64,000 nt of DNA from Ichthyobacteriaceae bacterium (GTDB lineage Bacteria > Bacteroidota > Bacteroidia > Flavobacteriales > JADGDT01), in contig JADGDT010000002.1 in assembly GCA_016744755.1 (NCBI GenBank), positions 12,302 through 76,301 of the forward strand, read 5' to 3'. Shown here piece by piece: positions 26,744 to 48,895 of this stretch (its first letter is position 1; every line of letters begins with the position of its first letter). The notes beneath the pieces were generated by a model, which saw nothing but the letters and a program-made list of their open reading frames with translations, ran no database searches and was not told the DNA's origin. A program made the position numbers and the translations under genes.

Positions 26744-26799
26744 CTGCATTACTACATCACCGTTTTACTGCATTACAGCATCACTGCATTACTATATCT
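26744..26799. repeat. Octamer array, 7 units (CTGCATTA / CWRCATCA)
   Basis: Hand-parsed units: ctgcatta ctacatca ccgtttta ctgcatta cagcatca ctgcatta ctatatct. The next unit overlaps the stop codon of the gene at 26804. Confidence 0.85.
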
Positions 26800-26803
26800 C
26801 TAA

Positions 26804-27667
26804 TTACTGATTACCCAAAATAATAGGCAATCCTCCTTCTCCTCCTCCAATAATAATAACTTTTGAGTTTGGAGATTCTGACAATTTAATTGTTGCCTCA
26901 ATACCTTTATCTTGAAGGATCTTATCAGTAAGCGATGAGTTTAATATATCATTCGCTTTAGCTTTACCTTCAGCATCAATCCTAATCTTCTGAGCTTCTT
27001 GAGTAGCTTTCTGTAAACGGAATTTGTACTCCAATGCTTCCTGCTCTTGCTTTAGCTTAGATTCAATAGCATTTTTTATTGTTGGAGGTAAAATTATATC
27101 TCTTACAAGGATTTCGTTTACCGTTACATACTGCTCTTTAAGTATTTCTTTAGTCTCGTGGAAAATTTCATCTTGAATAACATCTCTTTTAGAAGAATAA
27201 ATTTGCTCTGGCTCATAACGACCAATTACACTACGAGTAGCCGAACGCAAAGCTGGTCGTACCACCCTATTCAAATACCCTTGACCAATTTTACGGTGTA
27301 AATTTCCAAGATTTACTTGCTCTGGCATAAACCAAGCCGATAGCTCTACAGAGATATCTAATCCATTCGATGAAAGAACCTTCATTTTTTCACCTGCTTC
27401 TTGTTGTCTAACTTCGTAAACAAACATCTTGTTCCAAGGTGCTAAAAAATGGAATCCCTCTGAGTAAGTATTCTCTACATCAACACCTGATCCGAAAGTA
27501 CGGAATAAAACTCCTGCCTCACCCGAGCCAATAGTCACGGTCATTCGCGACCAAAAAAGTATCAATACTAGCAATCCTGCCCCTATTAACACTATCATAA
27601 ACGAAAACTTGTTACCTAGGTTTAATTGTGGCCCCTGGTTTTCTTGTTGTCCAAAATTTGCACTCAT
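26804..27667 (-). CDS. SPFH/band-7 (prohibitin/HflC-like) membrane protein
   Basis: N-terminal TM segment, then an SPFH core ('GEAGVLFRTFGSGV...') and a C-terminal coiled coil. Confidence 0.8.
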   Translation of the reverse strand: MSANFGQQENQGPQLNLGNKFSFMIVLIGAGLLVLILFWSRMTVTIGSGEAGVLFRTFGSGVDVENTYSEGFHFLAPWNKMFVYEVRQQEAGEKMKVLSSNGLDISVELSAWFMPEQVNLGNLHRKIGQGYLNRVVRPALRSATRSVIGRYEPEQIYSSKRDVIQDEIFHETKEILKEQYVTVNEILVRDIILPPTIKNAIESKLKQEQEALEYKFRLQKATQEAQKIRIDAEGKAKANDILNSSLTDKILQDKGIEATIKLSESPNSKVIIIGGGEGGLPIILGNQ

Positions 27668-27694
27668 ATTTTTGTTTTTTATTTAATTATAATT

Positions 27695-27897
27695 CAATGT
27701 TCAATGTTCAATGTTCAATTTGCAATGTTCAATGTTCAATTTGCAATGTTCAATTTGCAATGTTCAATTAGCAATGTTTAATTTACAATGTTCAATGTTC
27801 AATTAGCAATGTTTAATTTGCAATGTTCAATTAGCAATGTTTAATTTACAATGTTCAATGTTCAATTTGCAATGTTCAATTAGCAATGCTCATTGTA
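27695..27897. repeat. Heptamer array, 29 units (CAATGTT alternating with CAATTWG / TAATTTR)
   Basis: Hand-parsed with no phase break over 203 bp. It starts 27 nt upstream of the start codon at 27667. Confidence 0.95.
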
Positions 27898-27904
27898 GAC
27901 TAAA

Positions 27905-27953
27905 AAATTGTTAACTGCTAATTGATAACTGTAAATTGTTAACTGTAAATTGT
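27905..27953. repeat. Heptamer array, 7 units (AAATTGT / TAACTGY)
   Basis: Units: aaattgt taactgc taattga taactgt aaattgt taactgt aaattgt. A further degenerate unit runs into the stop codon at 27959-27961. Confidence 0.9.
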
Positions 27954-27958
27954 ATTTG

Positions 27959-29761
27959 CTAATATAATCCATTTCTCTTTCTAAGTAACCATTCTACACC
28001 TAAAATTATTGGTAATAAAAACAAAATCCACCACTGCTCTACAATATTTTTATATTGAGTTTTTAAAATAGATGTTCTACTAGCTTTCAATATTAAACTA
28101 TCAATTAAATCTGAATAATTTTCTAAGTTATAAAGTCTTGTTTCTTTACTTGATACAATACTATTTAAAAAATTAATATTCTTATAATTCCCCAAAAGCT
28201 CCATGTTTATATCTTTAACAATAAAAGTAATTGTTTCTATCTTTTTACCATTTACACTAATTTTACTTGTGTAAGTTTTAGATTCAAGATTTCCGATATT
28301 AAGTGAATAGCTACCTTTTTCTTCAATAAAATCAAATATTTGTTTACGCCCATTAATTTCTATCTCTGCCTTTGCCTTTGCATTAACATTAACAGGTTTC
28401 ATTTTAGAATACTCGTTTACAAGTTTTATAACAACATTTTCTGATGAAGAGTAAACATCCTTAAAAACCACGTTATATTTATCTGAATATTTAAGTAGTT
28501 CTATCTCTTTAAGTAATGAATGGAAAAATAGGTTTAAATTGTTATCTCCTCGTTTTGCTTCTTTCAAATTTAATTTCCACAGATTATTTATATCTAAAAA
28601 TATTCTTTTTGATTTTGAATCAACAAAAAATGATTTTAAAAACTTTTTATCTAAAGTTGACTCTACTCTCTCCTGATTATTATCTAATTCTTTGAAAGAT
28701 GAGTTGATTAAAACTACGGGCAGATTTAGATTTTTATTATACGAATCGTTAAAGTCAACAATGAAATCAAATTTTGAAATTTCTTTTTTACTGAAAGCAT
28801 TTTTGGTAACAATAACTTTGTAATTTTTTTGCGAAAATTTCCTTTTTAGCAACGAAACATCAGGATTTAACTGACTGTATTTTATTAGTATAACGCCTTT
28901 ATTTTTTACAAAATTAACCGTTATAAGCTTTTCATCAACTAGAGACTTATCTTGTTTAGAAAATAATTTCACTTTAAAAACATGTGTTCCATCAGAAAAT
29001 GACTTTAATAAAATTGAATGTCTCTTCTTCTGTTTAGCATTAATGTTTGGCAGTATTAACACCCTTTCTGTTAATACATTTTTTTCTTTTTCTGATACTT
29101 CTAATTGTACTTCACCAGAAAAGTTTGAAGACTCAATAAATATCTCTAGCGGAAAACTATTTCCTACAACAACCTCTTTGTTGTAGTTAATTGCAAGAAT
29201 TGAAATTCTAGGAATACTAATAGTATCCCCAACTCCAATTACATCTAAACTATAACTACTATTCTTAGTAAATACAGAAGAACTTCCCTTGTTAATATTT
29301 CCATCACTCACCAAAATAACTCTATCTCCTTGGGTGAGTAAAAAATCTAGACTTTTCTCTAATTCATTAAAATTTGTTCTAGAATTATTAAATTTTAGAG
29401 TATCTATTTCCGAAACACTTTCTCCAAAACCAATATTTTTAATTTGATATTTAGTTGATAGATCCGAATTATTAACATCCTTAAACACTGATTCTAATTC
29501 CTCAAAACTAGTATTCAATAACATAGAAGAAGATTGATCGAAGGCTAAAACTAATTTTGGTTTAACTGTAGTTTTTACTTGTGTTGGCAGCATTAATGTA
29601 CCTATTGCAATAAAAACTATCAGTAGAGATAGAAAACGCAAAAACGCCATGAAAATAAATTTCCACGACGTTTTTATATTTTTTTTATACATAAAAAACG
29701 ACAGTAAACCCGATATCAAAAACGATAGAAATATATACCAAATTGGATAATCGTATGTCAT
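27959..29761 (-). CDS. Membrane protein with a vWA-like MIDAS motif
   Basis: Two N-terminal TM segments and one C-terminal TM segment, plus a 'LVLAFDQSSSM' DxSxS motif. No closer family assignment. Confidence 0.5.
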   Translation of the reverse strand: MTYDYPIWYIFLSFLISGLLSFFMYKKNIKTSWKFIFMAFLRFLSLLIVFIAIGTLMLPTQVKTTVKPKLVLAFDQSSSMLLNTSFEELESVFKDVNNSDLSTKYQIKNIGFGESVSEIDTLKFNNSRTNFNELEKSLDFLLTQGDRVILVSDGNINKGSSSVFTKNSSYSLDVIGVGDTISIPRISILAINYNKEVVVGNSFPLEIFIESSNFSGEVQLEVSEKEKNVLTERVLILPNINAKQKKRHSILLKSFSDGTHVFKVKLFSKQDKSLVDEKLITVNFVKNKGVILIKYSQLNPDVSLLKRKFSQKNYKVIVTKNAFSKKEISKFDFIVDFNDSYNKNLNLPVVLINSSFKELDNNQERVESTLDKKFLKSFFVDSKSKRIFLDINNLWKLNLKEAKRGDNNLNLFFHSLLKEIELLKYSDKYNVVFKDVYSSSENVVIKLVNEYSKMKPVNVNAKAKAEIEINGRKQIFDFIEEKGSYSLNIGNLESKTYTSKISVNGKKIETITFIVKDINMELLGNYKNINFLNSIVSSKETRLYNLENYSDLIDSLILKASRTSILKTQYKNIVEQWWILFLLPIILGVEWLLRKRNGLY

Positions 29762-29812
29762 TTATTTACTGTTTTTCGTTTAGTTGTATTTTGTTTAGCT
29801 GATTTCTATTTA

Positions 29813-29854
29813 CTTTTCACTTTTCACTTTAAACTTTTCACTTTTCACTTTTTT
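29813..29854. repeat. Heptamer array, 6 units (CTTTTCA)
   Basis: Units: cttttca cttttca ctttaaa cttttca cttttca ctttttt. Confidence 0.9.
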
Positions 29855-29860
29855 GTTTAT

Positions 29861-30007
29861 GCCCCCAATTGTAGTGTTAGCCCGGAAATGGGAATACTAA
29901 TGAACAACACGCTAGACTGGCTTTTGCTTTTGGGCAAAAGACCCGACTAGTGTGTTTGTGAATTGTATTGCCATTGAGGACTACAAATGGAAAGTGGGAA
30001 TTGGCAC
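29861..30007. repeat. Imperfect ~145-nt palindrome (structured RNA or MITE-like element)
   Basis: The arms pair by eye: ccaattgtagt/actacaaatgg, aatgggaatac/gtattgccatt, acacgctagactgg/cccgactagtgtgt. The central hairpin is cttttgc-ttttgg-gcaaaag. The element is GC-richer than its flanks. Confidence 0.6.
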
Positions 30008-30015
30008 ATAATATC

Positions 30016-30120
30016 AATTATCAATGTGCAATTATCAATGTGCAATTATCAATGTGCAATTATCAGTTTTCAGTTATCAATGTGCAATTAACAGTTTTCA
30101 ATTATCAGTTATCAATTGAC
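30016..30120. repeat. Heptamer array, 15 units (AATTATC/AATGTGC with AGTTTTC, AGTTATC variants)
   Basis: Hand-parsed over 105 bp with no phase break. The last base is the first base of the fabG stop codon triplet (30120-30122). Confidence 0.95.
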
Positions 30121-30866
30121 TAAGTAAGCATTCCACCATCAACGTTAATTACTTGCCCAGTGATGTAAGTTGACATATCAGAAGCTAAGAATACTGTAAG
30201 ATTTGCAACATCTTCGGCAGTACCTCCTCTTTTTAAAGGAATAGCATTTCGCCATTCTTTAACCATTTTCTCATCAAGGGCATCGGTCATTTCAGTTTCT
30301 ATAAAGCCTGGAGCAATAGCGTTTGAGCGAATATTACGAGAGCCTAGTTCAAGTGCAATAGATTTTGTAAATCCAATGATACCAGCTTTTGAAGCAGAGT
30401 AGTTTGCCTGACCAGCATTTCCTTTAACTCCAACAACAGAACTCATGTTTATTATAGAGCCACTGCGTTGTTTAAGCATTGTACGCTGACAAGCTTTTGT
30501 AAGATTGAAAACAGATTTCAAATTGATTCTAATAACTTCATCCCACTGCTCTTCGCTCATACGCATTAAAAGATTATCGCGTGTAACTCCTGCATTATTA
30601 ACCAATATATCTATTCTTCCGAATTCTGCAACAACATCTTTTGCCAATTGATCGGCAGAAGCAAAGTCAGATGCATCAGAACGAAAACCTTTAATCTTTG
30701 TTCCGTATTGTTCTAATTCCTTCTCCAAAGCTTCTCCTTTTTCTACAGACGAAAGGTAAGTGAAAGCAATATCTGCTCCATTTTTTGCAAAAACTTCTGC
30801 TATCTCTCTACCAATACCTCTTGAAGCACCTGTTATAATTGCTGTTTTCCCTTTTAATAATTGCAT
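30120..30866 (-). CDS. fabG: 3-oxoacyl-[acyl-carrier-protein] reductase
   Basis: 'TGASRGIGREIA', 'NNAG', 'YSASKAG'; 248 aa. Confidence 0.9.
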   Translation of the reverse strand: MQLLKGKTAIITGASRGIGREIAEVFAKNGADIAFTYLSSVEKGEALEKELEQYGTKIKGFRSDASDFASADQLAKDVVAEFGRIDILVNNAGVTRDNLLMRMSEEQWDEVIRINLKSVFNLTKACQRTMLKQRSGSIINMSSVVGVKGNAGQANYSASKAGIIGFTKSIALELGSRNIRSNAIAPGFIETEMTDALDEKMVKEWRNAIPLKRGGTAEDVANLTVFLASDMSTYITGQVINVDGGMLT

Positions 30867-30970
30867 AATAATTTATTTAATACTTGTTTGTTTCTAATTC
30901 AAGTTTGTAAATATATTAAAAGTGAAAAAAGTTAGAAGTATTTATTTGTGTTTTTTGTAAAAGAGTAATT

Positions 30971-31066
30971 CAGTAATACAGTAATACGGTAATACAGTAA
31001 TACAGTAATACAGTGATGCAGTGATGCAGTGATGCAGTGATGCAGTGATGCAGTGATGCAGTGATA
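30971..31066. repeat. Octamer array, 12 units: 5 x CAGTAATA-type then 7 x CAGTGATG-type
   Basis: Hand-parsed units: cagtaata x2, cggtaata, cagtaata x2, cagtgatg x6, cagtgata. Confidence 0.95.
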
Positions 31067-31262
31067 CAGATCTACGAGTATCGCAGGCATTGTAATGTCT
31101 AATATCTTATAAAAAATTGAAATGTAGGTTTTGATTTAATCCGACTCTCGTAGGTCTGTGGCACTACGAGGTCTAACATTATTCAAATATTTTATCTGCG
31201 TTAATCTGCAAAATCTGCGGGCTATTAACTAAATTTGCCCTTCAACATTCAGAATACACAAC

Positions 31263-33377
31263 ATGGATAATCACATAATTTCACTTATGTCTAAATCTCT
31301 AAACATTAGAGATAAACAAGTAAAAAACACCATAGAACTTTTTGATGGAGGAGCTACCATCCCTTTTGTGGCACGATACCGAAAAGAAAGAACAAATAAT
31401 TTAGATGAAGTTGCACTAGCCGATATTCAGAAATTAAATCAGTATTACATAGATTTAGAAAAAAGGAAGAAATACATTATTGATAAAATTGATTCCGAAG
31501 AAAAACTAACTTCCGAATTGAAATCTAAAATTGAAAATACTTTTGATTCTACAGTTCTAGAAGATATTTACCTTCCTTTTAAATCTAAAAGAAAAACTAA
31601 AGCTGTTGTGGCTCGTGATAATGGACTTGAGCCTCTAGCTAAAATAATTATGTCGCAAAAAAGCTACGACTTAAATAGTAGTGCTATAAAATTTGTAATT
31701 AAAAATATAAATAATACTGATGAGGCTCTAGAAGGTGCAAGACATATAATTGCCGAGTGGATAAACGAAAATATTGGAGTTAGGGAATTACTTAGGAGTG
31801 ATTTTGAGAAATCAAGCAAGCTAAAATCAAAGGTAGTAAAAAGCAAAATTGAGGAGGCTGATAAATATTCTGATTATTTTGATTATGAGCAAACAATATC
31901 TAGAATTCCATCTCATAGATTTTTGGCAATTACTAGAGCTGTAAATCTTGGTTTACTGAAAATGTCTGTTGCTGTTGACGAAGAATATATCCTAAATAAA
32001 ATTTACAGAAAATTTATTAGAGGCAATAGCGAATCTGCAGAACAGATAGAATTAGCGATTAACGATGCTTACAAAAGATTGCTGAAACCATCGATAGAAA
32101 ACGAGCTTTTAAACAAAATTAAAGAGAAATCGGATGTTGACGCAATTAAGGTTTTTGAGAAAAATCTTTCTCAACTTCTACTTGCTTCACCTCTTGGACA
32201 GAAAAACATATTGGCAATTGATCCTGGTTTCAAATCGGGATGTAAGGTAGTTTGCATCAATAAAAATGGCGATTTACAGCACAACGAAAACATTTACCCT
32301 CACCCTCCACAAAAACAGCATAAGCTAGCATCGAGTAAGATTTTTAACCTTACAAAAGCATATAAAATAGAAGCTATTGCCATTGGTAACGGAACGGCTG
32401 GTAGAGAAACTGAGAGGTTTGTAAAAGGGCTAAAACTAAAACTTCCAATATTCTTGATTTCAGAAGATGGAGCATCTGTTTACTCGGCATCAAAAATAGC
32501 ACGTGAAGAATTTGGCAACTACGATGTTACCGTTAGGGGAGCCGTTTCTATAGGACGTAGATTGATGGATCCTTTGGCTGAGTTGGTAAAGATTGATGCT
32601 AAATCTATTGGAGTTGGACAATATCAGCACGAGGTAAATCAGACTAAATTACAGGAATCACTAGACAATGCAACTCTATCTGCAGTAAATAAAGTTGGCG
32701 TAAATTTGAACACAGCAGGAAAACATTTATTAGCTTACGTATCGGGCTTAGGTCCTGCACTAGCCCAAAATATTGTTGACTACCGTAGCGAAAATGGTTC
32801 TTTTGGTACTAGAAAAGAATTGCTAAAAGTAGCACGATTAGGAAATAAAGCATTTGAACAAAGTGCGGGTTTCTTGAGAATTAAAAATGCTAAAAATCCC
32901 CTCGACAACAGCGGTATTCATCCCGAGAGTTACGAATTGGTAAACAAAATTGCAAAATCAAAAAAAATAAAAATATCAGATTTAATTGGAAATACAGAAT
33001 TGATTAATTCTATAAATTTCTCTGAATATTCTACAAACGAGATTGGTGATTTGACTCTAACCGACATCAAAAATGAACTTTTAAAACCAGGTTTAGACCC
33101 TCGAAGCATTTTAGCAGAAATTAGTTTCGACGATAATATTAGAACAATAAACGACCTTAACGAAGGAATGGAACTTACAGGTAAGGTAGTAAATATTACC
33201 AATTTCGGAGCATTTGTTGATTTGGGAATTAAAGAATCGGGGTTGATACATCTATCAAATATGGCTGATAGGTACATTAACAATCCTAACGAAATTGTTA
33301 GTTTGCAACAAGCTGTAGATGTTAGAATTATTTCTTTGGAAGTTGATAAAAAGAGAATTGGCTTAAAATTAATTTGA
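31263..33377 (+). CDS. tex: Tex-like transcription accessory protein (S1 RNA-binding domain protein)
   Basis: N-terminal 'GATIPFVARYRKE', a YqgF-like 'ILAIDPGFKSGCK', HhH motifs, and a C-terminal S1 domain 'GKVVNITNFGAFVDLG'. Confidence 0.9.
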   Translation: MDNHIISLMSKSLNIRDKQVKNTIELFDGGATIPFVARYRKERTNNLDEVALADIQKLNQYYIDLEKRKKYIIDKIDSEEKLTSELKSKIENTFDSTVLEDIYLPFKSKRKTKAVVARDNGLEPLAKIIMSQKSYDLNSSAIKFVIKNINNTDEALEGARHIIAEWINENIGVRELLRSDFEKSSKLKSKVVKSKIEEADKYSDYFDYEQTISRIPSHRFLAITRAVNLGLLKMSVAVDEEYILNKIYRKFIRGNSESAEQIELAINDAYKRLLKPSIENELLNKIKEKSDVDAIKVFEKNLSQLLLASPLGQKNILAIDPGFKSGCKVVCINKNGDLQHNENIYPHPPQKQHKLASSKIFNLTKAYKIEAIAIGNGTAGRETERFVKGLKLKLPIFLISEDGASVYSASKIAREEFGNYDVTVRGAVSIGRRLMDPLAELVKIDAKSIGVGQYQHEVNQTKLQESLDNATLSAVNKVGVNLNTAGKHLLAYVSGLGPALAQNIVDYRSENGSFGTRKELLKVARLGNKAFEQSAGFLRIKNAKNPLDNSGIHPESYELVNKIAKSKKIKISDLIGNTELINSINFSEYSTNEIGDLTLTDIKNELLKPGLDPRSILAEISFDDNIRTINDLNEGMELTGKVVNITNFGAFVDLGIKESGLIHLSNMADRYINNPNEIVSLQQAVDVRIISLEVDKKRIGLKLI

Positions 33378-33426
33378 TGATTTTAATATATGTTAGCATT
33401 AAAACGTGAATATTTATAAAAATAAA

Positions 33427-33472
33427 AGTCCGAAGCAATAAGTAAACCTTAATTACTTCGGACTTTTTTTTT
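33427..33472 (+). terminator. Rho-independent terminator of tex
   Basis: agtccgaag ... cttcggact followed by a T9 run. Confidence 0.8.
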
Positions 33473-33521
33473 GCAATCAGCTTTTATCTTCAGTCTTAGA
33501 ATTTTTACCTTTAAACTTAAT

Positions 33522-34595
33522 CTATAACTCCCAGCCAAGACCTGTATTCATAACATAATCATATTCCGATCCTTCTACTGCTGGTTGGTTATCATAATTA
33601 ACTGTTGTTCCAGCTTTTATGTACAAATCATATGGCAAATCATATTTTGCTTCAAACTTAAAATCTGTACGAATACGACCATCTTCTGTAAAACTCGGAA
33701 AAACAACAATATTTGTCATCAAATTCAAATCTCCAATATCAAATAAGTTTAACTCTGATCCTATATATCCCTCTCCACTTGTTCGTGGGTTGGGATCAAC
33801 AGGATCAACATCGGTAGCAAAATACTTTTCATTAGTATACGCTGCTCCACCTTCAATCTTCAAATACAAATGGTTTGTTCTTAAGATAAAAAAACCAAGA
33901 CCGACTTTATAAGTAGATCTTAAATCTAACTGCATTTCATCATTTTCTAAGAATGTAGCAGATGTAGCCAAATATAAGTTCTTTGGAAGATACCAGTTAA
34001 AACCAGCATTAGCATCAAGCCTGTGAACTCTAGCCACACTATCCTGCTCACTATTTACAATATTTAATCCAGCATCTGCACCCCATTTATCGGCTAAATA
34101 CCCCAGAGTACTACCTATGTTCAATTGCGAAAGGTTATTAGCTTTTGCTATATTAAAACCAACATCAATAGTAGCATTTAATCTACTTAAAAATGATTCG
34201 TTAAAAGACTTCAAGTATACTATCTGGCTATACTTAACAGTCTTATCTCCTCTATAAGTATGCAAAATTATCATATCAGGATTAGTAGGGTGCGACTCTA
34301 AAGTTGCATTAATTCTATCTCCAATACTATCACTTTCTGCCATGAAACTTTTCATGCCTTCAATACTTTCCTTGCTAAGAGATACTATATATTTCGAACC
34401 TGTTTTTATATAGCTAAGTTTATCCCATTCTACCTTAAAATCAGAATCACTATAGTCCGTTTCAATGGTAAGAACTCCTCTATCCATTGACTTAATCTCT
34501 CCATTTAACTCATTCCCATTTTTTAATTTTATCACATCCTGTGCGTTAACAGAAATTCCTGTAATAATAAGTAGTAATAGTGATATCCTTTTCAT
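33522..34595 (-). CDS. DUF481-like outer-membrane beta-barrel protein
   Basis: Signal peptide, an N-terminal 'IKLKNGNELNGEIKSMDRGVLTIET' module, and an alternating beta-strand pattern ending in an aromatic-rich C-terminus. Confidence 0.55.
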   Translation of the reverse strand: MKRISLLLLIITGISVNAQDVIKLKNGNELNGEIKSMDRGVLTIETDYSDSDFKVEWDKLSYIKTGSKYIVSLSKESIEGMKSFMAESDSIGDRINATLESHPTNPDMIILHTYRGDKTVKYSQIVYLKSFNESFLSRLNATIDVGFNIAKANNLSQLNIGSTLGYLADKWGADAGLNIVNSEQDSVARVHRLDANAGFNWYLPKNLYLATSATFLENDEMQLDLRSTYKVGLGFFILRTNHLYLKIEGGAAYTNEKYFATDVDPVDPNPRTSGEGYIGSELNLFDIGDLNLMTNIVVFPSFTEDGRIRTDFKFEAKYDLPYDLYIKAGTTVNYDNQPAVEGSEYDYVMNTGLGWEL

Positions 34596-36263: not shown

Positions 36264-36288
36264 TTTTTAGTTTAGTATAAAAAACACA

Positions 36289-36321
36289 AAAGCTCTACGA
36301 TAACTCGTAGAGCTTTTTTTG
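36289..36321. terminator. Bidirectional rho-independent terminator (tpx / fadD-like convergent pair)
   Basis: Perfect hairpin agctctacga-taac-tcgtagagct, with an A-rich run before it and a T7 run after it. Confidence 0.85.
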
Positions 36322-36383: not shown

Positions 36384-36463
36384 CTGTTAAACAAATAACC
36401 GAATAAACAGTTAAACAACTCAACAGTTAAACAATTAAACAACTCAACGATTAAACAGTTAAA
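36384..36463. repeat. Octamer array, 10 units (CAGTTAAA / CAACTCAA / CAATTAAA ...)
   Basis: Units: ctgttaaa caaataac cgaataaa cagttaaa caactcaa cagttaaa caattaaa caactcaa cgattaaa cagttaaa. The array ends one base before the stop codon at 36464-36466. Confidence 0.9.
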
Positions 36464-39343: not shown

Positions 39344-39456
39344 AAATTATGGGGGTGCCTAGAGTTAAAAAGTACTTAAAAGTTAATCCGACTCTTACTA
39401 AAAGCACCCATTAACTTTATAACTCTAAGTACTCTTAACTATTTAACTAAAAAGAT

Positions 39457-40506: not shown

Positions 40507-40602
40507 CTTAACTGCTTAATGGTAAAATAAACATTAAGGAATTAAGTTTCATTAAGTCTCAAATATAACTTGTTTTTTCTTAATGGCTTAATGGTAAAAT
40601 AA
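40507..40602. repeat. Degenerate octamer-phased array (CTTAATGG / TAAAATAA words)
   Basis: 'cttaatgg taaaataa' occurs at 40515 and again at 40587, a distance that is a multiple of 8. The intervening sequence parses into 8-mers such as acattaag and gaattaag. Confidence 0.5.
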
Positions 40603-42653: not shown

Positions 42654-42926
42654 TTTATATAATTAATTTGTGTTTTTATATACTATTCAAGTCATACAAA
42701 GTCAAGAAACTGTAGAATAGTAGAACAATAGTTTGTGATAAAATTAATTAGTCGCAAATAAAAAGAAATAATTACAAATTACATCTTAATAAAGTATTAA
42801 ATATCATGCGATAGGTATCGTTCATCATTATTTTAACATTGCTTTTTATCAAAAAAAAACTATTAATCACTATAAAAGTTTGATGCAAAATCTTTATTTG
42901 TATTTTTGCTTTCACAAACAAAATTT

Positions 42927-45341
42927 ATGGCCAAAAAGAAAGCTCCCAAAAAAAAGAAAATCTCATTAAAAGATAGATTTTCTTCATATAAAAATTTCCA
43001 TCTAATTATAGGTATCTCACTGATACTCATATCTATTTCATTACTAATTTCATTTTCATCTTACCTTTGGAATTGGCAATCAGATCAATCGGTGCTTTCT
43101 GATTTTTGGAATAAAGACATCAAAGTTAATAACCTCCTTGGGAAAGTTGGTGCAAACTTGGGGCATATTTTCCTTTACAAGTGGTTTGGTATTGCATCTT
43201 TTATATTTGTTTATCTAGTAGGAAAAGCTGGATTAATAATTTCTCTAAAATTAGATTCTACAAATTATATAAAAAATCTTTTCAAAAACCTTATTCTTGT
43301 TTTGTGGTTATCTATAGCTTTAGGGTTTTTCTTTGATGCATTGCCTATTTTAGGAGGTATTTTCGGATACGAAATAAATGACTTTTCTACTATTTACATT
43401 GGAAACATTGGTGTAGCAATAATATTATTTTTCTCATTAGTAGCTTGGCTTGTTGTCCGATTCAATATTACACCTCACACAATTAACGAAAAGCTATTCA
43501 ATGCTAAAGATTCTTTAGATAGTTGGAAATCAAAAAAAGAAGTTGAAACTCATGATTCTTTTGGAACAGGAATAAACAACAATAGCTTAATTGATGATGA
43601 TTTTGACATTGTTGTTAATAATAAGGAATCCAAAGTTGAAACTAGTGATGAATTAATTATTGAGACTAAAGAAATAGACGCTTTTGACGAAATTCCGAAA
43701 TGTCCGATTAAAGAAGATATTGATGTTGAAACTGGCGATTTAGAAATTGAAGCTCCACAAGAAGAAGAAGTTGTTGAAGAAATTAAACACAATGAACTAA
43801 GTGATAAAGAGCTTGCAGAGCAACTAGTAGATGAGTTTGGAGAATATGACCCTGGATTAGAATTATCTCATTATCAATATCCAGAGCTTCAGCATTTAGT
43901 TGAATACGACAACGAAAACATAAGTATAGATAGAGCGGAACTTGAACTTAATAAAAATAGAATTGTAGAAACCCTAAACAATTACAAAATTGAGATTGCT
44001 AAGATTAAAGCAACCATAGGCCCAACAGTTACTCTTTACGAAATTATACCTGCTCCAGGTGTTAGAATTTCTAAAATTAAAAACCTAGAGGATGATATTG
44101 CTTTAAGTCTATCAGCTCTAGGTATTCGTATAATTGCTCCAATTCCTGGCAAAGGAACAATTGGTATTGAAGTTCCAAATAAGAAACCCACAATAGTTTC
44201 TATGAAATCTGTTTTGGCTTCTAACAACTTCCAAACCTCAGAAATGGATCTTCCTTTGGCTTTAGGGAAAACAATATCTAACACTACTTTTGTTGTTGAC
44301 CTAGCAAAAATGCCTCACCTACTTGTTGCTGGTGCTACCGGACAAGGTAAGTCTGTTGGACTAAATGCCATCATGACTTCATTGCTTTACAAAAAACATC
44401 CATCGGAATTGAAGTTTGTTTTGGTAGATCCTAAAAAAGTAGAGCTTACTTTATTCAACAAGGTAGAAAGACATTATTTAGCTAAACTCCCTGATTCTGA
44501 TGAGGCAATTATTACTGATACTCACAAAGTAATTAACACCCTTAACTCACTGTGTATAGAGATGGACGATAGGTATGAATTATTGAAAAATGCCTACGTT
44601 AGAAATATAAAAGAATACAACACAAAATTCAAACAAAGGAAACTTAATCCTAATGATGGTCATAAATTCTTACCATACATAGTTTTAATTATTGATGAAT
44701 TTGCCGATTTGATAATGACAGCTGGTAAAGAAGTAGAAACACCTATTGCCCGTCTAGCTCAGCTTGCTCGTGCCATTGGAATTCACTTAGTAGTTGCAAC
44801 TCAACGACCATCGGTAAATGTGATTACTGGTATTATTAAAGCCAATTTCCCTGCGAGACTTGCATTCAGAGTTTCATCTAAAATTGACTCTCGTACTATA
44901 CTAGATGCAGGTGGTGCCGATCAACTTATTGGTAAAGGAGATATGCTTTTCACTAGTGGTAACGAAATGGTAAGATTGCAATGTGCCTTTGTTGATACAC
45001 CTGAAGTAGAAAGTATTACTAACTACATTGGAGATCAAAAAGGATATGCCGAAGCATATATGTTGCCAGAATATGTAGGCGATGAAAACACAGGAACTAC
45101 TGACATTGATATTAATGATAGAGATGCTAAATTTGAAGAGGCTGCTAGGCTGATAGTAAATGCTCAACAGGGTTCGGCATCATTATTGCAAAGAAAATTA
45201 AAATTGGGATACAACCGTGCAGGTAGAATTGTTGATCAATTAGAAGCTGCCGGAATCATAGGCCCTTTCGAGGGTTCTAAAGCAAGACAGGTACTTGTAC
45301 CAGACGAGGCATCTCTTCAAAATTTATTAAACAACGAATAG
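42927..45341 (+). CDS. ftsK: DNA translocase FtsK/SpoIIIE
   Basis: N-terminal TM segments, Walker A 'GATGQGKSV', Walker B 'LIIDEFADL', and a gamma domain 'SASLLQRKLKLGYNRAGRIVDQLE'. The ATG at 42927 is preferred. Confidence 0.9.
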   Translation: MAKKKAPKKKKISLKDRFSSYKNFHLIIGISLILISISLLISFSSYLWNWQSDQSVLSDFWNKDIKVNNLLGKVGANLGHIFLYKWFGIASFIFVYLVGKAGLIISLKLDSTNYIKNLFKNLILVLWLSIALGFFFDALPILGGIFGYEINDFSTIYIGNIGVAIILFFSLVAWLVVRFNITPHTINEKLFNAKDSLDSWKSKKEVETHDSFGTGINNNSLIDDDFDIVVNNKESKVETSDELIIETKEIDAFDEIPKCPIKEDIDVETGDLEIEAPQEEEVVEEIKHNELSDKELAEQLVDEFGEYDPGLELSHYQYPELQHLVEYDNENISIDRAELELNKNRIVETLNNYKIEIAKIKATIGPTVTLYEIIPAPGVRISKIKNLEDDIALSLSALGIRIIAPIPGKGTIGIEVPNKKPTIVSMKSVLASNNFQTSEMDLPLALGKTISNTTFVVDLAKMPHLLVAGATGQGKSVGLNAIMTSLLYKKHPSELKFVLVDPKKVELTLFNKVERHYLAKLPDSDEAIITDTHKVINTLNSLCIEMDDRYELLKNAYVRNIKEYNTKFKQRKLNPNDGHKFLPYIVLIIDEFADLIMTAGKEVETPIARLAQLARAIGIHLVVATQRPSVNVITGIIKANFPARLAFRVSSKIDSRTILDAGGADQLIGKGDMLFTSGNEMVRLQCAFVDTPEVESITNYIGDQKGYAEAYMLPEYVGDENTGTTDIDINDRDAKFEEAARLIVNAQQGSASLLQRKLKLGYNRAGRIVDQLEAAGIIGPFEGSKARQVLVPDEASLQNLLNNE

Positions 45342-45386
45342 TATTATTTCTTAATTTTGGAAATAGTAAATCAAAAATGAAACAAC

Positions 45387-46025
45387 ATGAAAAAAATAAG
45401 TTTTATAATCGCATTAGTAAGTTTCACTACAACAATATTTGCTCAGGATAAAGGTGCTGAACTTTTAAACAAAGTGAGTGCTAAGACTAACGGCTACAAC
45501 GATATTGAAATTGCATTCAGTTACAATATGGATAACAATGTAGAAGATATTCATCAATCAAAAAAAGGAAATGCTCTTATTCAAAAAGATAAATTCCAGA
45601 TAAGTTTAGATGGACTTGTTATTATTTTTGATGGTGCAAAAAGATATACTATACTAGAAGATGAAGTTACTATTTCTAGTGATGACGATGAATCTGGCAT
45701 AAGTAATCCTACACAAATTCTAAATATGTACAAGGATGGATACGTAATAAAATGGGATATAGAACAAAAAGTCCCTGGTAAAACTATTCAGTATGTTAGG
45801 TTGATTCCTATTGATTCCGATTCCGAATATCAATATATTCTTATTGGAAGCGATATTGTTACCAACGATTTGTACAATGTTATTTATACAGATAAACAAG
45901 GGACTCAGTTTAAGCTACAAATTAATAGTCTTAAAGGAAATGGAAATTTACCTGATTCACTATTTATGTTTGATAAGAGTAAATATCCAGAACCAGAGTA
46001 CTTATACACAGATTTAGATGAATAA
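45387..46025 (+). CDS. lolA: LolA-like outer-membrane lipoprotein carrier protein
   Basis: Signal peptide, ~210 aa, and the conserved ftsK-lolA gene order of Bacteroidota. The sequence pattern is weak, so context supplies part of the support. Confidence 0.6.
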   Translation: MKKISFIIALVSFTTTIFAQDKGAELLNKVSAKTNGYNDIEIAFSYNMDNNVEDIHQSKKGNALIQKDKFQISLDGLVIIFDGAKRYTILEDEVTISSDDDESGISNPTQILNMYKDGYVIKWDIEQKVPGKTIQYVRLIPIDSDSEYQYILIGSDIVTNDLYNVIYTDKQGTQFKLQINSLKGNGNLPDSLFMFDKSKYPEPEYLYTDLDE

Positions 46026-46138
46026 TGTTTAAGTAATAAACATTAGCTTTGCCGATGAATATTATTGATATAGTATACTCAATTTCACATAACAAAATTC
46101 AAAAGGAGTTTTAGTTTTTCCACTTGTAATTATAGTAA

Positions 46139-47689
46139 ATGAAAAAATTAAACAGTTACATTCTAAAATCGTATGCATCTCCATTTGTTGCTACGTTTTT
46201 TTTAGTATTATTTTTTCTAATAATGCAGTTCTTTTGGCTGTATGTTGATGATTTAATTGGTAAAGGTTTGAGTTTTTGGGTAATAATAAAATTACTCTAC
46301 TACATTTCTTTCTCTTTAGTTCCAATGGCTCTTCCTCTTGCAATTCTGCTTTCGAGTATAATGACATTTGGTAATTTATCTGAAAACTACGAGTTGGCTG
46401 CAATGAAATCAGCTGGTGTATCTCTATATCGAATTATGAGGCCTCTTATAGTTTTGATGATGATAATGGCTGTTCTTACTTTTTATTTTTCGAATTATGC
46501 CGTGCCATACGCAAATTTTAAAAGTAAAAATTTACTGTACAACATCACAAAACAAAAACCTTCTCTTAATCTTAAAGAAGGAATTTTCAATACAAGTATT
46601 CCTGGTTTTAGTATTAGAATAAAGGAAAAAAATGGAGAAGATGATCAATTTATAAAAGATGTAATTATCTACGACCACAATTCGGGCAAAGGAAATAGCA
46701 AAAGTATTACAGCCAAAAAAGGGGAAATGGATTTAGCAGGCGGTGGTAAATATCTTAAACTTACCCTTTTTGATGGATACATGTTTGAAGAAGCTTCAAA
46801 TATGAAAAAGAAAAAAGATAAGAAACGTCAACCTTTCACCAAAACACAGTTTAGTAAAGACATAGTTTATATTGATTTATCGTCATTCAACATGGATAAT
46901 ATTAATGATGAGAATTTCTCAAACAACTATGCCATGATGAATATAAACCAGTTGGATGTAGCGATAGATTCTTTACAGATAAAGTACAACGAAACAAAAA
47001 CTAATTACGACAAAAAAGTAAGGTCTAAGCTTAGATTTAGTGCATTAGAAATTGACTCTACTAACGAAGAAATAGCAAAAACTAATTTTGCAAAAAACAT
47101 TAAATTACTTGAAATAGATACTTTAACTGAAGATGAAAAATTACTTTCTACAAATATAATTTTATCTCATTTCAACGATAATAAACGTAAGAAAGAAGAC
47201 GTAATAAGCGCATCTATAAATCAAGCAAGAAAGATGTCGGATTACCTAGGAGAGGTTAAAAAAACACAGAATTACAGAAGAGAAAATATTGCAAAACACA
47301 TAATGGAAATACATAGAAAATACGCTTTTTCTTATGTGTGTATAGTTATGTTTTTCATTGGAGCACCACTTGGGGCTATTATCCGTAAAGGTGGATTAGG
47401 AATGCCTGTGGTTGTAGCAATTGTAATATTTATTTTCTACCACGTAATGTCTTTATCTGCCGAAAAACTAGGTAGGGCTGGTGAGTTATCCCCTTTCTGG
47501 TCTAGGTGGGGGCCGGCATTTATACTTACTCCTTTTGGCCTTTTACTTACTAGAAAAGCAACAACCGATTCTGCAATTTTCAATTCTGAACTCTACTTTA
47601 AACCGCTTTACAAATTCCTTGGCTTATTGAAAAGGAAGAAAGAGGAAAAGAAAAAAGCAAAAGAGAATAATGAAAGCAACCAACAATAA
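46139..47689 (+). CDS. LptF/LptG family LPS export permease
   Basis: YjgP/YjgQ-type topology: three N-terminal TM segments, a large periplasmic insert, and three C-terminal TM segments. Confidence 0.7.
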   Translation: MKKLNSYILKSYASPFVATFFLVLFFLIMQFFWLYVDDLIGKGLSFWVIIKLLYYISFSLVPMALPLAILLSSIMTFGNLSENYELAAMKSAGVSLYRIMRPLIVLMMIMAVLTFYFSNYAVPYANFKSKNLLYNITKQKPSLNLKEGIFNTSIPGFSIRIKEKNGEDDQFIKDVIIYDHNSGKGNSKSITAKKGEMDLAGGGKYLKLTLFDGYMFEEASNMKKKKDKKRQPFTKTQFSKDIVYIDLSSFNMDNINDENFSNNYAMMNINQLDVAIDSLQIKYNETKTNYDKKVRSKLRFSALEIDSTNEEIAKTNFAKNIKLLEIDTLTEDEKLLSTNIILSHFNDNKRKKEDVISASINQARKMSDYLGEVKKTQNYRRENIAKHIMEIHRKYAFSYVCIVMFFIGAPLGAIIRKGGLGMPVVVAIVIFIFYHVMSLSAEKLGRAGELSPFWSRWGPAFILTPFGLLLTRKATTDSAIFNSELYFKPLYKFLGLLKRKKEEKKKAKENNESNQQ

Positions 47690-47704
47690 TAAGTTTTGAT
47701 AACT

Positions 47705-48847
47705 ATGTCAACAGAACAAAATAAAAAAAGGAAGCTCAATACAATCGCTGAGGCTATAGAAGATATAAAAGCTGGAAAAGTTATAATTGTAGTTGATGAT
47801 GAGGACAGAGAAAATGAAGGAGATTTTGTAGCCGCAGCTGAAAATATTTCTCCAGAAATAATAAATTTTATGGCTACTCATGGTCGTGGACTTATCTGTA
47901 TGCCATTAACAGAACAAAGAGCGACTGAGCTTGATCTAAACATGATGGTTGGAAATAATACCGATCCTAAAGAAACGGCTTTTACTGTTTCTGTTGATCT
48001 CCTTGGACATGGTGTTACAACAGGTATTTCTGCTGGAGACAGAGCTTTAACTGTACAAGCAATGGTTGATGAAAAGACAAAACCATCAGATCTAAGCCGT
48101 CCAGGGCATATATTTCCTTTAAAAGCTAAAAGTGGTGGTGTATTACGTAGAACAGGTCATACCGAAGCAGCTATAGATTTTGCACGTTTGGCTGGTCTAA
48201 AACCCGCTGGTGTTATTTGCGAAATAATGAATGAAGATGGTTCTATGGCAAGAGTACCTCAACTACTGGATGTAGCCGAAAAATTTGATCTTAAAATGGT
48301 TTCTATCGAAGATTTAGTCGCTTACCGTATGCGCCACGATTCGTTGATAGAGAAAGTTGAAGAGTACGATTTAAAAACTCTTTTAGGTGATTTCCACCTT
48401 AGAGCTTACCGCCAAACAAACAATGGACAGGTACACATTGCACTTACAAAAGGTACTTGGGAATTAGGAGATACGGTAACTGTTAGAGTTAACCCTAGCT
48501 CAATCAACAACGATTTACTTGGTTACCTTACCAACGATTGTGAATCGCAACTAAATAAGGTTCTTAATCTTATAAATTCTGAGGAAAAATCAGCTATTGT
48601 TTTTGTTAATCAAGACAATAAACCTAATAACTTACTCTCTAGAATTTCTGAACTTAAGAGTATTCAGGGAAATGGAGAAATGGGTGCTCCAAGTTTAAAA
48701 TTCGATGATAAAGATTATGGAATTGGTGCCCAAATTTTACACGATTTAGATATAAATAAAATTAAACTTATTTCTAATAATATTCCTCTAAAACGTGTTG
48801 GTATGATTGGGTACGGATTGGAAATTGTTGAAAATATTGAATACTAG
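47705..48847 (+). CDS. ribBA: 3,4-dihydroxy-2-butanone-4-phosphate synthase with a degenerate GTP cyclohydrolase II-like C-terminal domain
   Basis: 'DDEDRENEGDFV', 'RTGHTEAA'. The C-terminal half aligns to RibA but lacks most of the zinc cysteines. Confidence 0.85.
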   Translation: MSTEQNKKRKLNTIAEAIEDIKAGKVIIVVDDEDRENEGDFVAAAENISPEIINFMATHGRGLICMPLTEQRATELDLNMMVGNNTDPKETAFTVSVDLLGHGVTTGISAGDRALTVQAMVDEKTKPSDLSRPGHIFPLKAKSGGVLRRTGHTEAAIDFARLAGLKPAGVICEIMNEDGSMARVPQLLDVAEKFDLKMVSIEDLVAYRMRHDSLIEKVEEYDLKTLLGDFHLRAYRQTNNGQVHIALTKGTWELGDTVTVRVNPSSINNDLLGYLTNDCESQLNKVLNLINSEEKSAIVFVNQDNKPNNLLSRISELKSIQGNGEMGAPSLKFDDKDYGIGAQILHDLDINKIKLISNNIPLKRVGMIGYGLEIVENIEY

Positions 48848-48895
48848 TTGCAGGTTGCAGGTTGCAGGTTGCAGGTTGCAGGTTGCAGGTTGCAG
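48847..48895. repeat. Perfect heptamer array (GTTGCAG)7
   Basis: 49 bp counted by hand. The first G is the last base of the ribBA TAG stop codon. Confidence 0.98.

Follow-up and report, generated by a model that had tools for sequence, protein, structure and literature searches.

Long simple-sequence repeats (LSSRs) of prokaryotes have units of 5–11 nt, with heptanucleotides the commonest class (Mrazek, Guo & Shah 2007, as cited in PMC4679880 and PMC4692102), and polymerase slippage has been proposed as their origin (Mrazek 2007, as cited in PMC4679880). Direct repeats of the heptamer TAACTGA have been described in Beggiatoaceae, Cyanobacteria and five Bacteroidetes (MacGregor 2015, PMC4679880). 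In a Beggiatoaceae genome, most TAACTGA sets are just upstream of start codons and in a single orientation, and one Flexibacter set is directly behind a stop codon (PMC4679880). Gramella, Aequorivita and Elizabethkingia have arrays of the TAACTGA family at loci where their close relatives are without them; those of Gramella and Aequorivita are long and intermixed with other heptamers (PMC4679880). The GGGAATC and GGGGA(C/T)T heptamers of Xanthomonas and Nostoc strongly tend to lie very near, or to overlap, the stop of the ORF upstream (Rehm 2015, PMC4692102). They are G-rich, form G-quadruplexes and are preferentially found as four units, and no regulatory role was found for them (PMC4692102). 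The same paper cites three tandem heptanucleotides in Calothrix PCC 7601. The preliminary description of the DNA studied here was correct that such arrays have no described function; nonetheless, both the array class and its proximity to stops have been published (Mrazek 2007; MacGregor 2015, PMC4679880; Rehm 2015, PMC4692102).

We analysed a 64-kb stretch of DNA (the window) from the genome of an uncultured member of the Flavobacteriales. It was scanned for tandem repeats, using TRF and our own lag-score scan against Markov shuffles, with segment-level shuffles for each candidate. Besides one (ATGT)n, the periods detected were 7, 8 and their multiples only; the Markov shuffles gave an expectation of 0 arrays at any period. 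The arrays and associated features are as follows.

537–568: heptamer array of AAAGTTC type with about 4.6 units, in the 3ʹ portion of ORF 2–637 (TRF; lag-7 self-match 0.80, P<0.0005 in segment-level shuffles).
635–676, plus strand: octamer array A0, words TAAACACC TAAACAAG TTAACAAC TAACCGAA TAAACATA (P=0.001); it opens with the three bases of the ORF 2–637 stop, TAA, and occupies the whole 39-nt spacer before the ATG at 677.
26743–26799, minus strand: octamer array A1, 7 units of minus-strand AGTRATGC words; about 10 nt away is an IS5-like element, whose right inverted repeat ends at 26734.
27693–27897, minus strand: heptamer array A2, 29 units of the minus-strand words ACATTGA/AAATTGA/TAATTGA, ending 25 nt upstream of the Band_7 ATG, with a higher-order repeat of 63 nt (9 units) at 91% identity (TRF).
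27905–27953, plus strand: heptamer array A3, 7 units of AAATTGT/TAACTGT, in inverted orientation to A2 and A5.
29770–29806: weak repeat, 2.5 copies of 15 nt, close upstream of the 600-aa gene start (TRF score 46).
29812–29854, minus strand: heptamer array A4, 6 units of minus-strand AAAGTGA.
29862–30010: element X, an imperfect palindrome of about 150 nt flanked by A4 and A5.
30012–30119, minus strand: heptamer array A5, 15 units of the minus-strand words TAACTGA/TAATTGA/ACATTGA/AAACTGA.
30957–31069, plus strand: octamer array A6, AGTAATAC five times, then AGTGATGC six times, in the divergent region between the starts of fabG and Tex.
36288–36317: bidirectional intrinsic terminator common to the Redoxin gene (plus strand) and the AMP-binding gene (minus strand).
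36384–36463, minus strand: octamer array A7, TAACTGTT/TAATTGTT/GAGTTGTT on the minus strand, 10 units.
48847–48896, plus strand: heptamer array A8, (GTTGCAG)x7; its position coincides with the junction of a 7.35-kb island missing from a co-occurring haplotype.
48899–48945, plus strand: terminator hairpin and U-run 3ʹ of A8, seen by folding and missed by a simple terminator scan.

Each of A1 to A8 was supported by TRF and by segment-level shuffles (P<0.0005 for each). Their phase is strict, as had been claimed: base-period indels are at 0% (TRF), and every copy spacing is a multiple of 7 or of 8. The GTTGCAG array at ribBA is indeed a perfect heptamer array of seven units. Ten intergenic arrays had been listed, of which these eight are real and strictly phased, and two are indistinguishable from chance. 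The supposed degenerate octamer array at 39409–39448 has a lag-8 self-match of 0.41 (P=0.85 over all lags) and TRF reports nothing there; that at 40507–40602 (P=0.24 over all lags) holds nothing beyond two copies of CTTAATGG and a dispersed GCTTAATGGTAAAATAAA duplicate. A0 and the array at 537–568 are additions to the earlier list. Element X folds with z-scores of −5.2 and −5.4, one per strand; alignment found it absent from relatives, blastn found no further copy in the window or the fetched loci, and no Rfam family matched it.

Five arrays lie within 0–5 nt of a stop codon, and this can be read directly from the sequence. The gap is 4 nt from the Band_7 TAA to A1, 5 nt from the TAG of the 600-aa gene to A3, and 0 nt from the TAG of fabG to A5 and from that of the AMP-binding gene to A7; A8 overlaps the ribBA TAG by 1 nt, the last base of the stop being the first G of the array. 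If arrays were placed uniformly within their intergenic regions, the joint probability of the five contacts would be ~4e-7, by arithmetic from the coordinates. These stops are native and conserved, since relatives end at the same codon and Pfam domains extend to the C-termini. The “vWA” label given earlier to the 600-aa gene found no Pfam or NCBIfam support. The proposal that arrays lie between the stop and a visible terminator holds for A7 and A8, which should therefore be present in the mRNA. A2, A4 and A6 are not located at stops.

The words recur within the window, in both orientations. A2, A4, A5 and A7 have AYTG-type words on the sense strand; in A0, A1 and A3 such words are antisense. 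A1 is an inverted copy of A6 (82% complementary), and A3 and A5 are inverted copies of one word family, with the units TAACTGA, TAATTGA, AAACTGA and ACATTGA. A0 and A7, 35.7 kb apart, have in common an exact irregular 14-mer, TAACCGAATAAACA, for which 0.05 matches are expected. AYTG/CART cores are present in three of about five independent word families; hence, the common CA[AG]T core proposed earlier stands for these and fails for the remaining families.

Comparison of orthologous loci revealed that the arrays are lineage-specific. They are absent from most relatives with 81–91% identical flanking proteins, where the spacers are 31–44 nt long. Between the 600-aa gene and Band_7, the spacer is ~40 nt and repeat-free in L011 (91% Band_7 identity), L004/L010 (84%) and L008/L009 (81%); L003 (91%) has ~5 units, with words identical to those of the window, which has 29+7. 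L003 also has a shorter version of A1, again with identical words. The fabG spacer is 31 nt in L004/L010 and 358 nt in the window. Thus, arrays differ by graded expansion between relatives, and at one site the word itself has turned over: the ribBA stop is followed by (GTTGCAG)7 in the window, TAG(TTGGCTA)x2 in the co-occurring haplotype L134 and (TAGACTT)x2.9 in the 89% relative L136. In all three, the repeats are between the stop and a homologous terminator, and the terminators of L134 and L136 fold alike. Heptamer repeats are absent from the ribBA stop in relatives at 64–70% identity. The persistence of a heptamer repeat at this stop in three lineages could reflect selection for some array there. 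Contig L001, which starts inside A6, has only two mismatches to the window over 3.3 kb; both are in one A5 unit and swap it for another existing unit type. In A2, an assembly gap makes the comparison with L001 ambiguous as to unit number. In these alignments, variation within the population concentrates in the arrays, and independent assemblies also break within them.

To place the window in a wider context, 185,579 species genomes were scanned for (AYTGNNN)x6, and at least 120 loci matched, from Bacteroidota, Cyanobacteria, Planctomycetota, Acidobacteriota and other phyla among the matches listed. Each locus was chosen for one period-7 array. Among the matches listed, 70/258 stop-facing edges are ≤5 nt from the stop (14.4 expected), as compared to 21/218 start-facing edges (9.8 expected). 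Heptamer abutment to stops is 2–5x above uniform placement, and the start-facing excess is at most twofold. The stop excess persists in loci with GC≤0.5 and for ORFs ≥150 aa, and short repeats of period 5 or 6 in the matches listed have no such excess, ruling out an artefact of ORF calling. Isolated 2–3-unit heptamer duplications in the other genomes listed are already at stops (8/48 at −3 to 5 nt; 1.9 expected), and at several loci the stop codon falls within the first unit. Relative to the gene that they abut, words point either way at random (20 vs 25), and AYTG/CART cores are found in 50/139 co-resident arrays (18.7 expected), both among the matches listed. Among these matches, abutment to stop codons extends across phyla and shows no strand bias.

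What process would generate such arrays? Heptamer arrays known from Cyanobacteria, Xanthomonas, Beggiatoaceae and some Bacteroidetes are of the same class as those of the window. We consider it probable that they are long simple-sequence repeats, i.e., bacterial micro- or minisatellites with 7- and 8-nt units, produced by DNA-level slippage in spacers. A short spacer has few bases free of constraint, and a 7- or 8-nt tandem duplication would arise among these, the favoured site being right behind the stop codon and ahead of a terminator or the leader of the next gene. The array would then grow and shrink by whole units and multi-unit blocks, through replication slippage or unequal recombination, which would account for the exact phase. 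Pieces would now and then be copied to other loci, giving rise to a small vocabulary shared across the genome. Independent random slippage does not predict such a vocabulary; hence, copying, sequence-biased mutation or selection is also needed. We infer that the arrays are near-neutral and that selection causes their sharp edge, which would mark where insertions can begin and survive rather than a sequence-specific role in the mRNA. A slippage-driven VNTR class with nucleation at gene ends, one of the two readings offered in the preliminary description, fits the lineage specificity, the increase from ~5 to 29 units, the block duplications and the isolated 2–3-unit duplications at stops.

An alternative, which we regard as unlikely, is that gene ends are mutational hotspots, where tolerance alone does not decide placement and a process associated with translation termination or with a nearby hairpin actively nucleates 7–8-nt duplications right after the stop. 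Candidate processes are stalling of replication at the hairpin of a terminator or palindrome, and formation of R-loops after the ribosome's departure from the transcript. Such a hotspot would explain why young 2–3-unit duplications are already at stops, why the first unit can include the stop codon, and why three different words occupy one ribBA stop-to-terminator spacer. Furthermore, hairpins adjoin arrays: A7 and A8 are beside terminators, and A4 and A5 are around element X. However, the picture could be identical if the remainder of a short spacer were under purifying selection, the short arrays may be old ones that have contracted, and A2, A4 and A6 are away from stops.

A function of the arrays as double-stranded DNA, as binding platforms or tuning knobs, is doubtful. 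They could bind a nucleoid or heptad-binding protein, act as variable spacers governing the efficiency of terminators or the polarity of operons, or be substrates for rearrangement. The limited vocabulary that recurs at several loci in either orientation is consistent with such a function, and a preprint reports that contiguous heptamer repeats altered recF/recO expression in Nostoc reporter assays (bioRxiv 10.1101/2022.06.06.494920). A role in rearrangement has been suggested for long arrays (MacGregor 2015, PMC4679880); in the window, A8 is at an island junction and A1 adjoins an IS element. Nonetheless, we found no inversion between inverted arrays in any assembly compared, and no candidate binding protein was identified. 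Words and periods vary from site to site, and at ribBA also between relatives; moreover, the genes flanked are housekeeping genes, and close relatives with the same gene order have no arrays.

The other reading in the preliminary description, that transcribed arrays bind an oligomeric or single-strand RNA-binding protein (TRAP-like, S1, Csp or CsrA-type), is highly improbable. Such a protein, bound in 3ʹ UTRs or inter-cistronic spacers, would control stability, termination or translation. The positions of A7 and A8 between stop and terminator fit this, as does A2, just upstream of Band_7 in the “forward” orientation of the Beggiatoaceae TAACTGA repeats (PMC4679880). However, the window arrays do not agree in orientation relative to the sense strand and the census orientations are random, the words differ among sites and are not conserved at the ribBA site, and A6 is in a divergent promoter region. 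Two periods and several unrelated words would require several binders, and the spacer RNA is no more structured than its shuffles (z=−0.6). A role as backup stops is also unlikely: the stop-free orientation is as common as the orientation with stops in all frames. Lastly, an assembly or sequencing artefact is scarcely credible: assemblies break at arrays and one scaffold has an N-gap inside A2, so unit counts may be wrong, above all for the 203-nt A2, but identical arrays and unit order are present in independent ENA and Logan assemblies, and shorter homologous arrays are present in L003, a different sample.

The omega repressor, a ribbon-helix-helix protein of plasmid pSM19035, binds one conserved heptad, WATCACW, in 7–10 copies at plasmid promoters. 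The window arrays resemble its operators in having contiguous 7-bp units, direct and inverted, but they have many words, an 8-nt period as well, chromosomal gene-end positions and up to 29 units. TRAP sites in Bacillus trp leaders are (G/U)AG triplets at 2–3-nt spacing (period 5–6), strand-specific, conserved and in 5ʹ leaders. They too are short words at regular spacing in a transcribed non-coding region; in contrast, the window arrays have a period of 7–8, occur on either strand, are not conserved in word and are mostly 3ʹ. The STRR heptamers of Calothrix and Anabaena occupy non-coding spacers, including those within operons, with several word families per genome. The window arrays are likewise tandem heptamers in non-coding spacers, but differ in phylum and words.

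As far as LSSRs are characterized in the papers cited above, the window arrays share with them head-to-tail arrangement, length far above chance, intergenic bias and scattered phylogenetic distribution. They differ in an unusually high share of octamers (4/10 arrays) and a very high local density (7 arrays in 4.4 kb); the census, in which every locus was selected for period 7, had 288 array clusters of period 7 and 25 of period 8 among the matches listed. Like the Xanthomonas and Nostoc heptamers, the window arrays are mostly intergenic, form inverted pairs, have housekeeping neighbours and vary in length and sequence between close relatives, but they are AT-rich, cannot form G4 and reach 29 units. 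Unlike the TAACTGA repeats of the Beggiatoaceae genome, the arrays of the window mostly abut stops and occur in either orientation; the window has no exact TAACTGA dimer, the closest match having one mismatch, and octamer kin (TAACTG+TT) are not described in MacGregor 2015 (PMC4679880). Nonetheless, the word family of A3 and A5 (TAACTGA, TAATTGA, AAACTGA, ACATTGA) is identical to that of the TAACTGA repeats.

Tandem repetition in the window is restricted to a narrow set of periods. Tandem Repeats Finder (TRF) and an independent lag-score scan, both covering these 64 kb of the genome, recovered only periods of 7 and 8 nt and their multiples, plus one (ATGT)n tract. Markov shuffles of this AT-rich sequence (GC ~31%) give an expectation of zero arrays at any period. 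Ten arrays had been listed in the preliminary description; eight are well supported, each with P<0.0005, and two, at 39409-39448 (P=0.85) and 40507-40602 (P=0.24), are chance-like. The strict 7- or 8-nt phase stands, with 0% indels at the base period by TRF and all copy spacings being multiples of the unit. The arrays, labelled A0 to A8, are as follows.

Tandem arrays in the window
A0, 635-676: octamer array, beyond the range first reported; the TAA of ORF 2-637 forms array bases 1-3
A1, 26743-26799: octamer array, 4 nt from the TAA of the Band_7 (prohibitin-like) gene
A2, 27693-27897: heptamer array, 29 units
A3, 27905-27953: heptamer array, 5 nt from the TAG of a 600-aa gene located between fabG and Band_7
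A4, 29812-29854: heptamer array
A5, 30012-30119: heptamer array, 15 units, 0 nt from the fabG TAG
A6, 30957-31069: octamer array in the divergent promoter region between fabG and Tex
A7, 36384-36463: octamer array, 0 nt from the TAG of an AMP-binding (fadD-like) gene
A8, 48847-48896: (GTTGCAG)7, overlapping the ribBA TAG by 1 nt

A2 contains a 63-nt block repeat. A2 and A3, and likewise A4 and A5, seem phase-locked across their junctions, but this impression hinges on which register is chosen, and that choice is arbitrary. A further heptamer array (TGAAAGG TCAAAGT TCAAAGC ...) at 537-568 falls in the sequence encoding the C-terminal part of ORF 2-637, 67 nt before the TAA at which A0 begins; this ORF has no Pfam or NCBIfam match. 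The (ATGT)x7.8 tract, perfect and the sole short-unit SSR of the window, is at 12184-12214, between divergent genes separated by 473 nt, and may be phase-variable in the classic manner.

Five arrays had been described as touching stop codons, and the sequence confirms this, with gaps of 4, 5, 0 and 0 nt and one 1-nt overlap. The joint probability of five non-trivial stop contacts is ~4e-7 under uniform placement within each intergenic region. The abutted stops are native, since the 600-aa gene and fabG end at the same codon in relatives, and in RibBA and the AMP-binding protein the Pfam domains extend to the C-termini. TAG is found at 4 of 6 abutted stops and in 13 of 45 window genes, a difference that is not significant (P ~0.06), and all three stop codons occur among abutted stops in census examples from the matches listed. 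A7 is between a stop and a bidirectional terminator, and A8 between a stop and a hairpin followed by a U-run. Since each sits between stop and terminator, it is reasonable to suppose, as originally suggested, that A7 and A8 are transcribed as 3ʹ UTR. More generally, the arrays here adjoin hairpins, namely terminators and a ~150-nt palindrome (element X) between A4 and A5. Rfam at the gathering threshold returned tRNA only, with no RNA family over the arrays or element X. The “vWA” label first given to the 600-aa gene has no Pfam or NCBIfam support.

How old are the arrays? A search of genome contigs with the 600-aa protein found no relative, and orthologous loci were obtained by exact-protein look-ups of Band_7 homologues. 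An identical Band_7 protein is present on metagenome contigs ENA BORC21-1_SAMN14087007 and Logan SRR11072026, and the nearest named relative (84% identity) is labelled “MAG: Flavobacteriales bacterium”. Four contigs (L004, L010, L008 and L009; Band_7 81-84% identical) keep the order fabG, 600-aa gene, Band_7, with ~42-44 nt between the last two genes. The fabG spacer measures 31 nt in two of them (L004 and L010); in the other two (L008 and L009) it consists of ~218 nt of unrelated sequence, and all four are free of arrays at this locus. L011 (91% identity) has a 40-nt spacer, also without arrays. L003 (91% identity) carries ~5 units each, in the window's words, at the A2/A3 site (compared with 29 in A2) and at the A1 site, where its array is likewise between stop and terminator. 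The preliminary description put forward word conservation at orthologous loci as a check; L003 has the window's words, and at ribBA the words differ. The absence of arrays from L011 and the other contigs, together with the short versions in L003, indicates that the arrays are young. By sequence comparison, their inheritance spans short evolutionary distances, and the lineage of the window has seen them expand.

The window has other repeated or mobile elements. Relatives lack element X (29862-30010), an imperfect palindrome of 150 nt (folding z ~-5.3 for each strand) inserted between fabG and the 600-aa gene, where heptamer arrays flank it on each side. A second copy is absent from the window and from all loci retrieved, so that a MITE reading is unsupported. 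An IS5-like element (24913-26734), whose right end is 10 nt from A1, has 75-nt and 49-nt terminal inverted repeats (24913-25048 / 26552-26734), a transposase split into ORFs 25335-25841 and 25894-26238, and a 28-nt copy of its end sequence 2.4 kb upstream (22587-22614). The exact 12-mer TAATCCGACTCT occurs twice, at 31137-31148 and 39384-39395, ~75-125 nt upstream of the plus-strand starts of Tex (31263) and a MauE-domain gene (39457), and may be a shared regulatory or promoter-proximal motif. A 236-nt direct repeat with 84% identity (8400-8635 and 12393-12628) flanks a 1034-aa gene on the minus strand. One copy comprises the 3ʹ end of ORF 8177-8629 and a terminator, and the other a 78-aa ORF (12386-12622) with a similar terminator.

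The ribBA locus provides a second comparison between lineages. Relatives were found by exact protein look-up, with an ATG start at 47705. The stop region reads TA(GTTGCAG)7 in the window, TAG(TTGGCTA)2 in contig L134, and (TAGACTT)2.9 in contig L136 (89% RibBA identity), where the stop codon is part of the unit. All three heptamers share a position, between the stop and a homologous terminator, and none of the relatives at 64-70% identity has a heptamer array at the stop. L134 comes from the window's own sample and matches the window at 99.95% identity through 4,146 nt to TAGTTG, after which it diverges, rejoining the window at 56208. Hence, the window has a 7.35-kb island (48851-56207) that is absent from the L134 haplotype, in which ribBA is directly followed by the terminator and then tilS. 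The left junction of the island is exactly at A8, and the different word of L134 at this site is on a recombinant haplotype. The island has low GC (0.25-0.28) and encodes a CarboxypepD_reg-domain outer-membrane-type protein, a Porph_ging family protein, a response regulator and a TPR histidine kinase. In the RNA of 48845-48950, (GUUGCAG)7 is self-complementary through its UGCA cores and is predicted to fold on itself, forming a separate hairpin just upstream of that of the terminator (-41 kcal/mol in total, z=-5.9).

Assemblies break at the arrays: the first bases of L001 fall within A6 and those of L002 within A2, where L001 carries an N-gap, and L135 ends 3 nt past the ribBA stop. The L001 gap in A2 could reflect at least 8 extra units or an overlap left unmerged, and assembly may have altered the number of units in long arrays. 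Only 2 differences separate L001 from the window in 3.3 kb, and these swap one A5 unit for another existing type. Such arrays interrupt metagenome assemblies and mark junctions between strains, which makes them useful as VNTR markers and calls for caution at MAG contig ends.

The words of the arrays are related to one another in both orientations. A1 is an inverted copy of A6 (82% complementary) and A3 is inverted relative to A5 (85%), with A2 and A5 being direct relatives. An exact irregular 14-mer, TAACCGAATAAACA, is common to A0 and A7, which are 35.7 kb apart, with 0.05 matches expected; this indicates that array sequence has been copied between loci. On a single strand, the majority of the words read as variants of TAACTGA (TAATTGA, ACATTGA, AAACTGA, AAAGTGA), and the octamer words correspond to TAACTG+TT and T[TC]ACTG+CA. 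The TAACTGA-related arrays are mixtures of variants with 1-3 mismatches: exact TAACTGA dimers are absent from the window arrays, and dimers with 1 mismatch occur in A5 and with 2 mismatches in A3. Relative to adjacent genes, the TAACTGA-type orientation is sense in A2, A4, A5 and A7 and antisense in A0, A1 and A3. The units are AT-rich and none contains GGG.

In a scan that took a single genome from each species, the pattern (AYTGNNN)x6, in which six AYTG cores (Y = C/T) are in phase, gave at least 120 loci and 864 kb; loci were thus chosen by a single core pattern, and genes are simple ORFs of at least 100 or 150 aa. The matches listed include Polaribacter, Nonlabens, Salinimicrobium, Flavobacteriaceae, Chitinophagales and Prevotella within Bacteroidota, and Cyanobacteria, Planctomycetota, Acidobacteriota, Chloroflexota, Parabeggiatoa and more outside it. 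In these matches, TRF found 288 period-7 and 25 period-8 array clusters. Selection required one heptamer array per locus, and ~140 more, with different words, are beside the selected ones. In some census loci (for example L103, L111, L119), up to 8 or more additional heptamer arrays built of unrelated words lie within 8 kb. The most over-represented unit tetramers among the matches listed are ACTG (93, 15 expected) and ATTG (73, 23 expected).

Among the matches listed, array edges facing a stop are ≤5 nt from it in 70 of 258 cases (14.4 expected), and edges facing a start are ≤5 nt from it in 21 of 218 (9.8 expected), a contrast that holds in loci with GC≤0.5. Short period-5 or -6 repeats in these matches lack the contrast, which argues against an artefact of ORF calling. 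Isolated heptamer duplications of only 2-3 units already abut stops (8/48, 1.9 expected), in contrast to starts (1/50, 2.2 expected), in the matches listed. With respect to the gene that it abuts, the AYTG core is randomly oriented there (20 versus 25), and the core is enriched in co-resident arrays (50/139, 18.7 expected).

What is the origin of these arrays? The best-supported reading, and probably the correct one, is a DNA-level simple-sequence repeat that expands at gene ends or in short spacers. Behind a stop codon, where a few bases are free of constraint, or at another point in a short spacer, a 7- or 8-nt duplication would arise and would expand by whole units and blocks, with pieces sometimes being copied to other loci. 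MutS-type mismatch repair would presumably miss loops of 7-8 nt. The sharp array edge at the stop would mark a constraint boundary, possibly with a nucleation bias too. A slippage VNTR class nucleated at gene ends was one of two readings first offered, and it fits the lineage specificity, the unit expansion, the block repeat and the stop-abutting duplications of 2-3 units.

An alternative, which we consider unlikely, is a true position-specific hotspot tied to stop codons or hairpins. In its fuller form, a word-independent process would seed 7-8-nt duplications just after stops beside hairpins in at least five phyla, with fragments then spreading by copying; we consider this account equally unlikely. 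If it were true, gene ends would be a previously unrecognised mutational hotspot, one connected with translation ending or with replication stalling at hairpins, and not just a tolerated location. Still less probable is a function as double-stranded DNA or as a tuning knob.

The other reading first offered, RNA-level binding arrays of the TRAP type, is disfavoured. The words are not confined to the transcribed strand, being mixed in the window and split 20 to 25 in the matches listed, and no one word or spacing is conserved: words turn over at orthologous sites and there are two periods, 7 and 8. In addition, A6 lies between divergently transcribed genes, in their promoter region. Pairing between A3 and part of A2 is feasible, but the RNA structure of the whole 600-aa gene/Band_7 spacer is not significant (z=-0.6), and we saw no candidate oligomeric RNA-binding protein among the window proteins scanned. 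The arrays are not CRISPR, as stated from the outset, because their 7-8-nt units are contiguous and lack spacers (CRISPR has ~23-55-nt repeats and unique spacers). A backup-stop function was rejected because the all-frame-stop orientation is no commoner than the stop-free one in the matches listed. So was a phase-variation contingency locus, which would sit in an ORF or among the promoter elements of a surface, restriction-modification or virulence gene, since the arrays follow stops of housekeeping genes (Band_7, fabG, AMP-ligase, ribBA) and A6 alone is in a promoter region, between fabG and Tex. The same applies to an RHH/omega-type heptad operator, given several unrelated words, two periods and mostly 3ʹ-end positions.

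Why 7-nt arrays occur in unrelated phyla, each genome with its own small vocabulary, is a question dating from at least 2007. The window adds a dense AT-rich case with mixed heptamers and octamers in an uncultured Flavobacteriales lineage. Three facts are of use: stop-codon abutment across phyla, already at 2-3 units, and word orientation independent of transcription, both among the matches listed, and one stop-to-terminator spacer with different words in related lineages. Together, these narrow the question to DNA-level origin and tolerance, which is testable in cultured array-rich flavobacteria.

Both the array class and its proximity to stop codons are already published. Heptanucleotides are the most abundant prokaryotic long SSR and possibly result from polymerase slippage, according to the summary of Mrazek et al. 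2007 in PMC4679880. The article ‘Satellites in the prokaryote world’ (PMC6749651) makes no mention of stop codons, terminators, heptanucleotides or Bacteroidetes. In Nostoc, contiguous heptamer repeats affect recF and recO reporter expression, according to a 2022 preprint (10.1101/2022.06.06.494920). Like prokaryotic long simple sequence repeats (VNTR), the window arrays repeat a short unit (1-11 nt in that class) head to tail over a length significantly above that predicted from composition, and they change by whole units. TAACTGA direct repeats have been described in Beggiatoaceae, 15 Cyanobacteria and five Bacteroidetes (MacGregor 2015, PMC4679880), with a role in rearrangement or for RNA-binding proteins proposed without evidence. 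The window arrays differ in having no two tandem exact TAACTGA copies. They nonetheless resemble the Bacteroidetes pattern, that of Gramella forsetii and Aequorivita, where long arrays include other heptamers as well and close relatives lack them in the corresponding spacer (PMC4679880): the window arrays are likewise intergenic, lineage-specific and absent from the same spacer in close relatives. The G-quadruplex heptamers of Rehm et al. 2015 (PMC4692102) vary between close relatives, form inverted pairs and have no identifiable regulatory role. They have G-tracts of at least 3 per unit, in contrast to the GGG-free units of the window, but they adjoin or overlap the stop of the upstream ORF, as do several window arrays and some of those among the matches listed.
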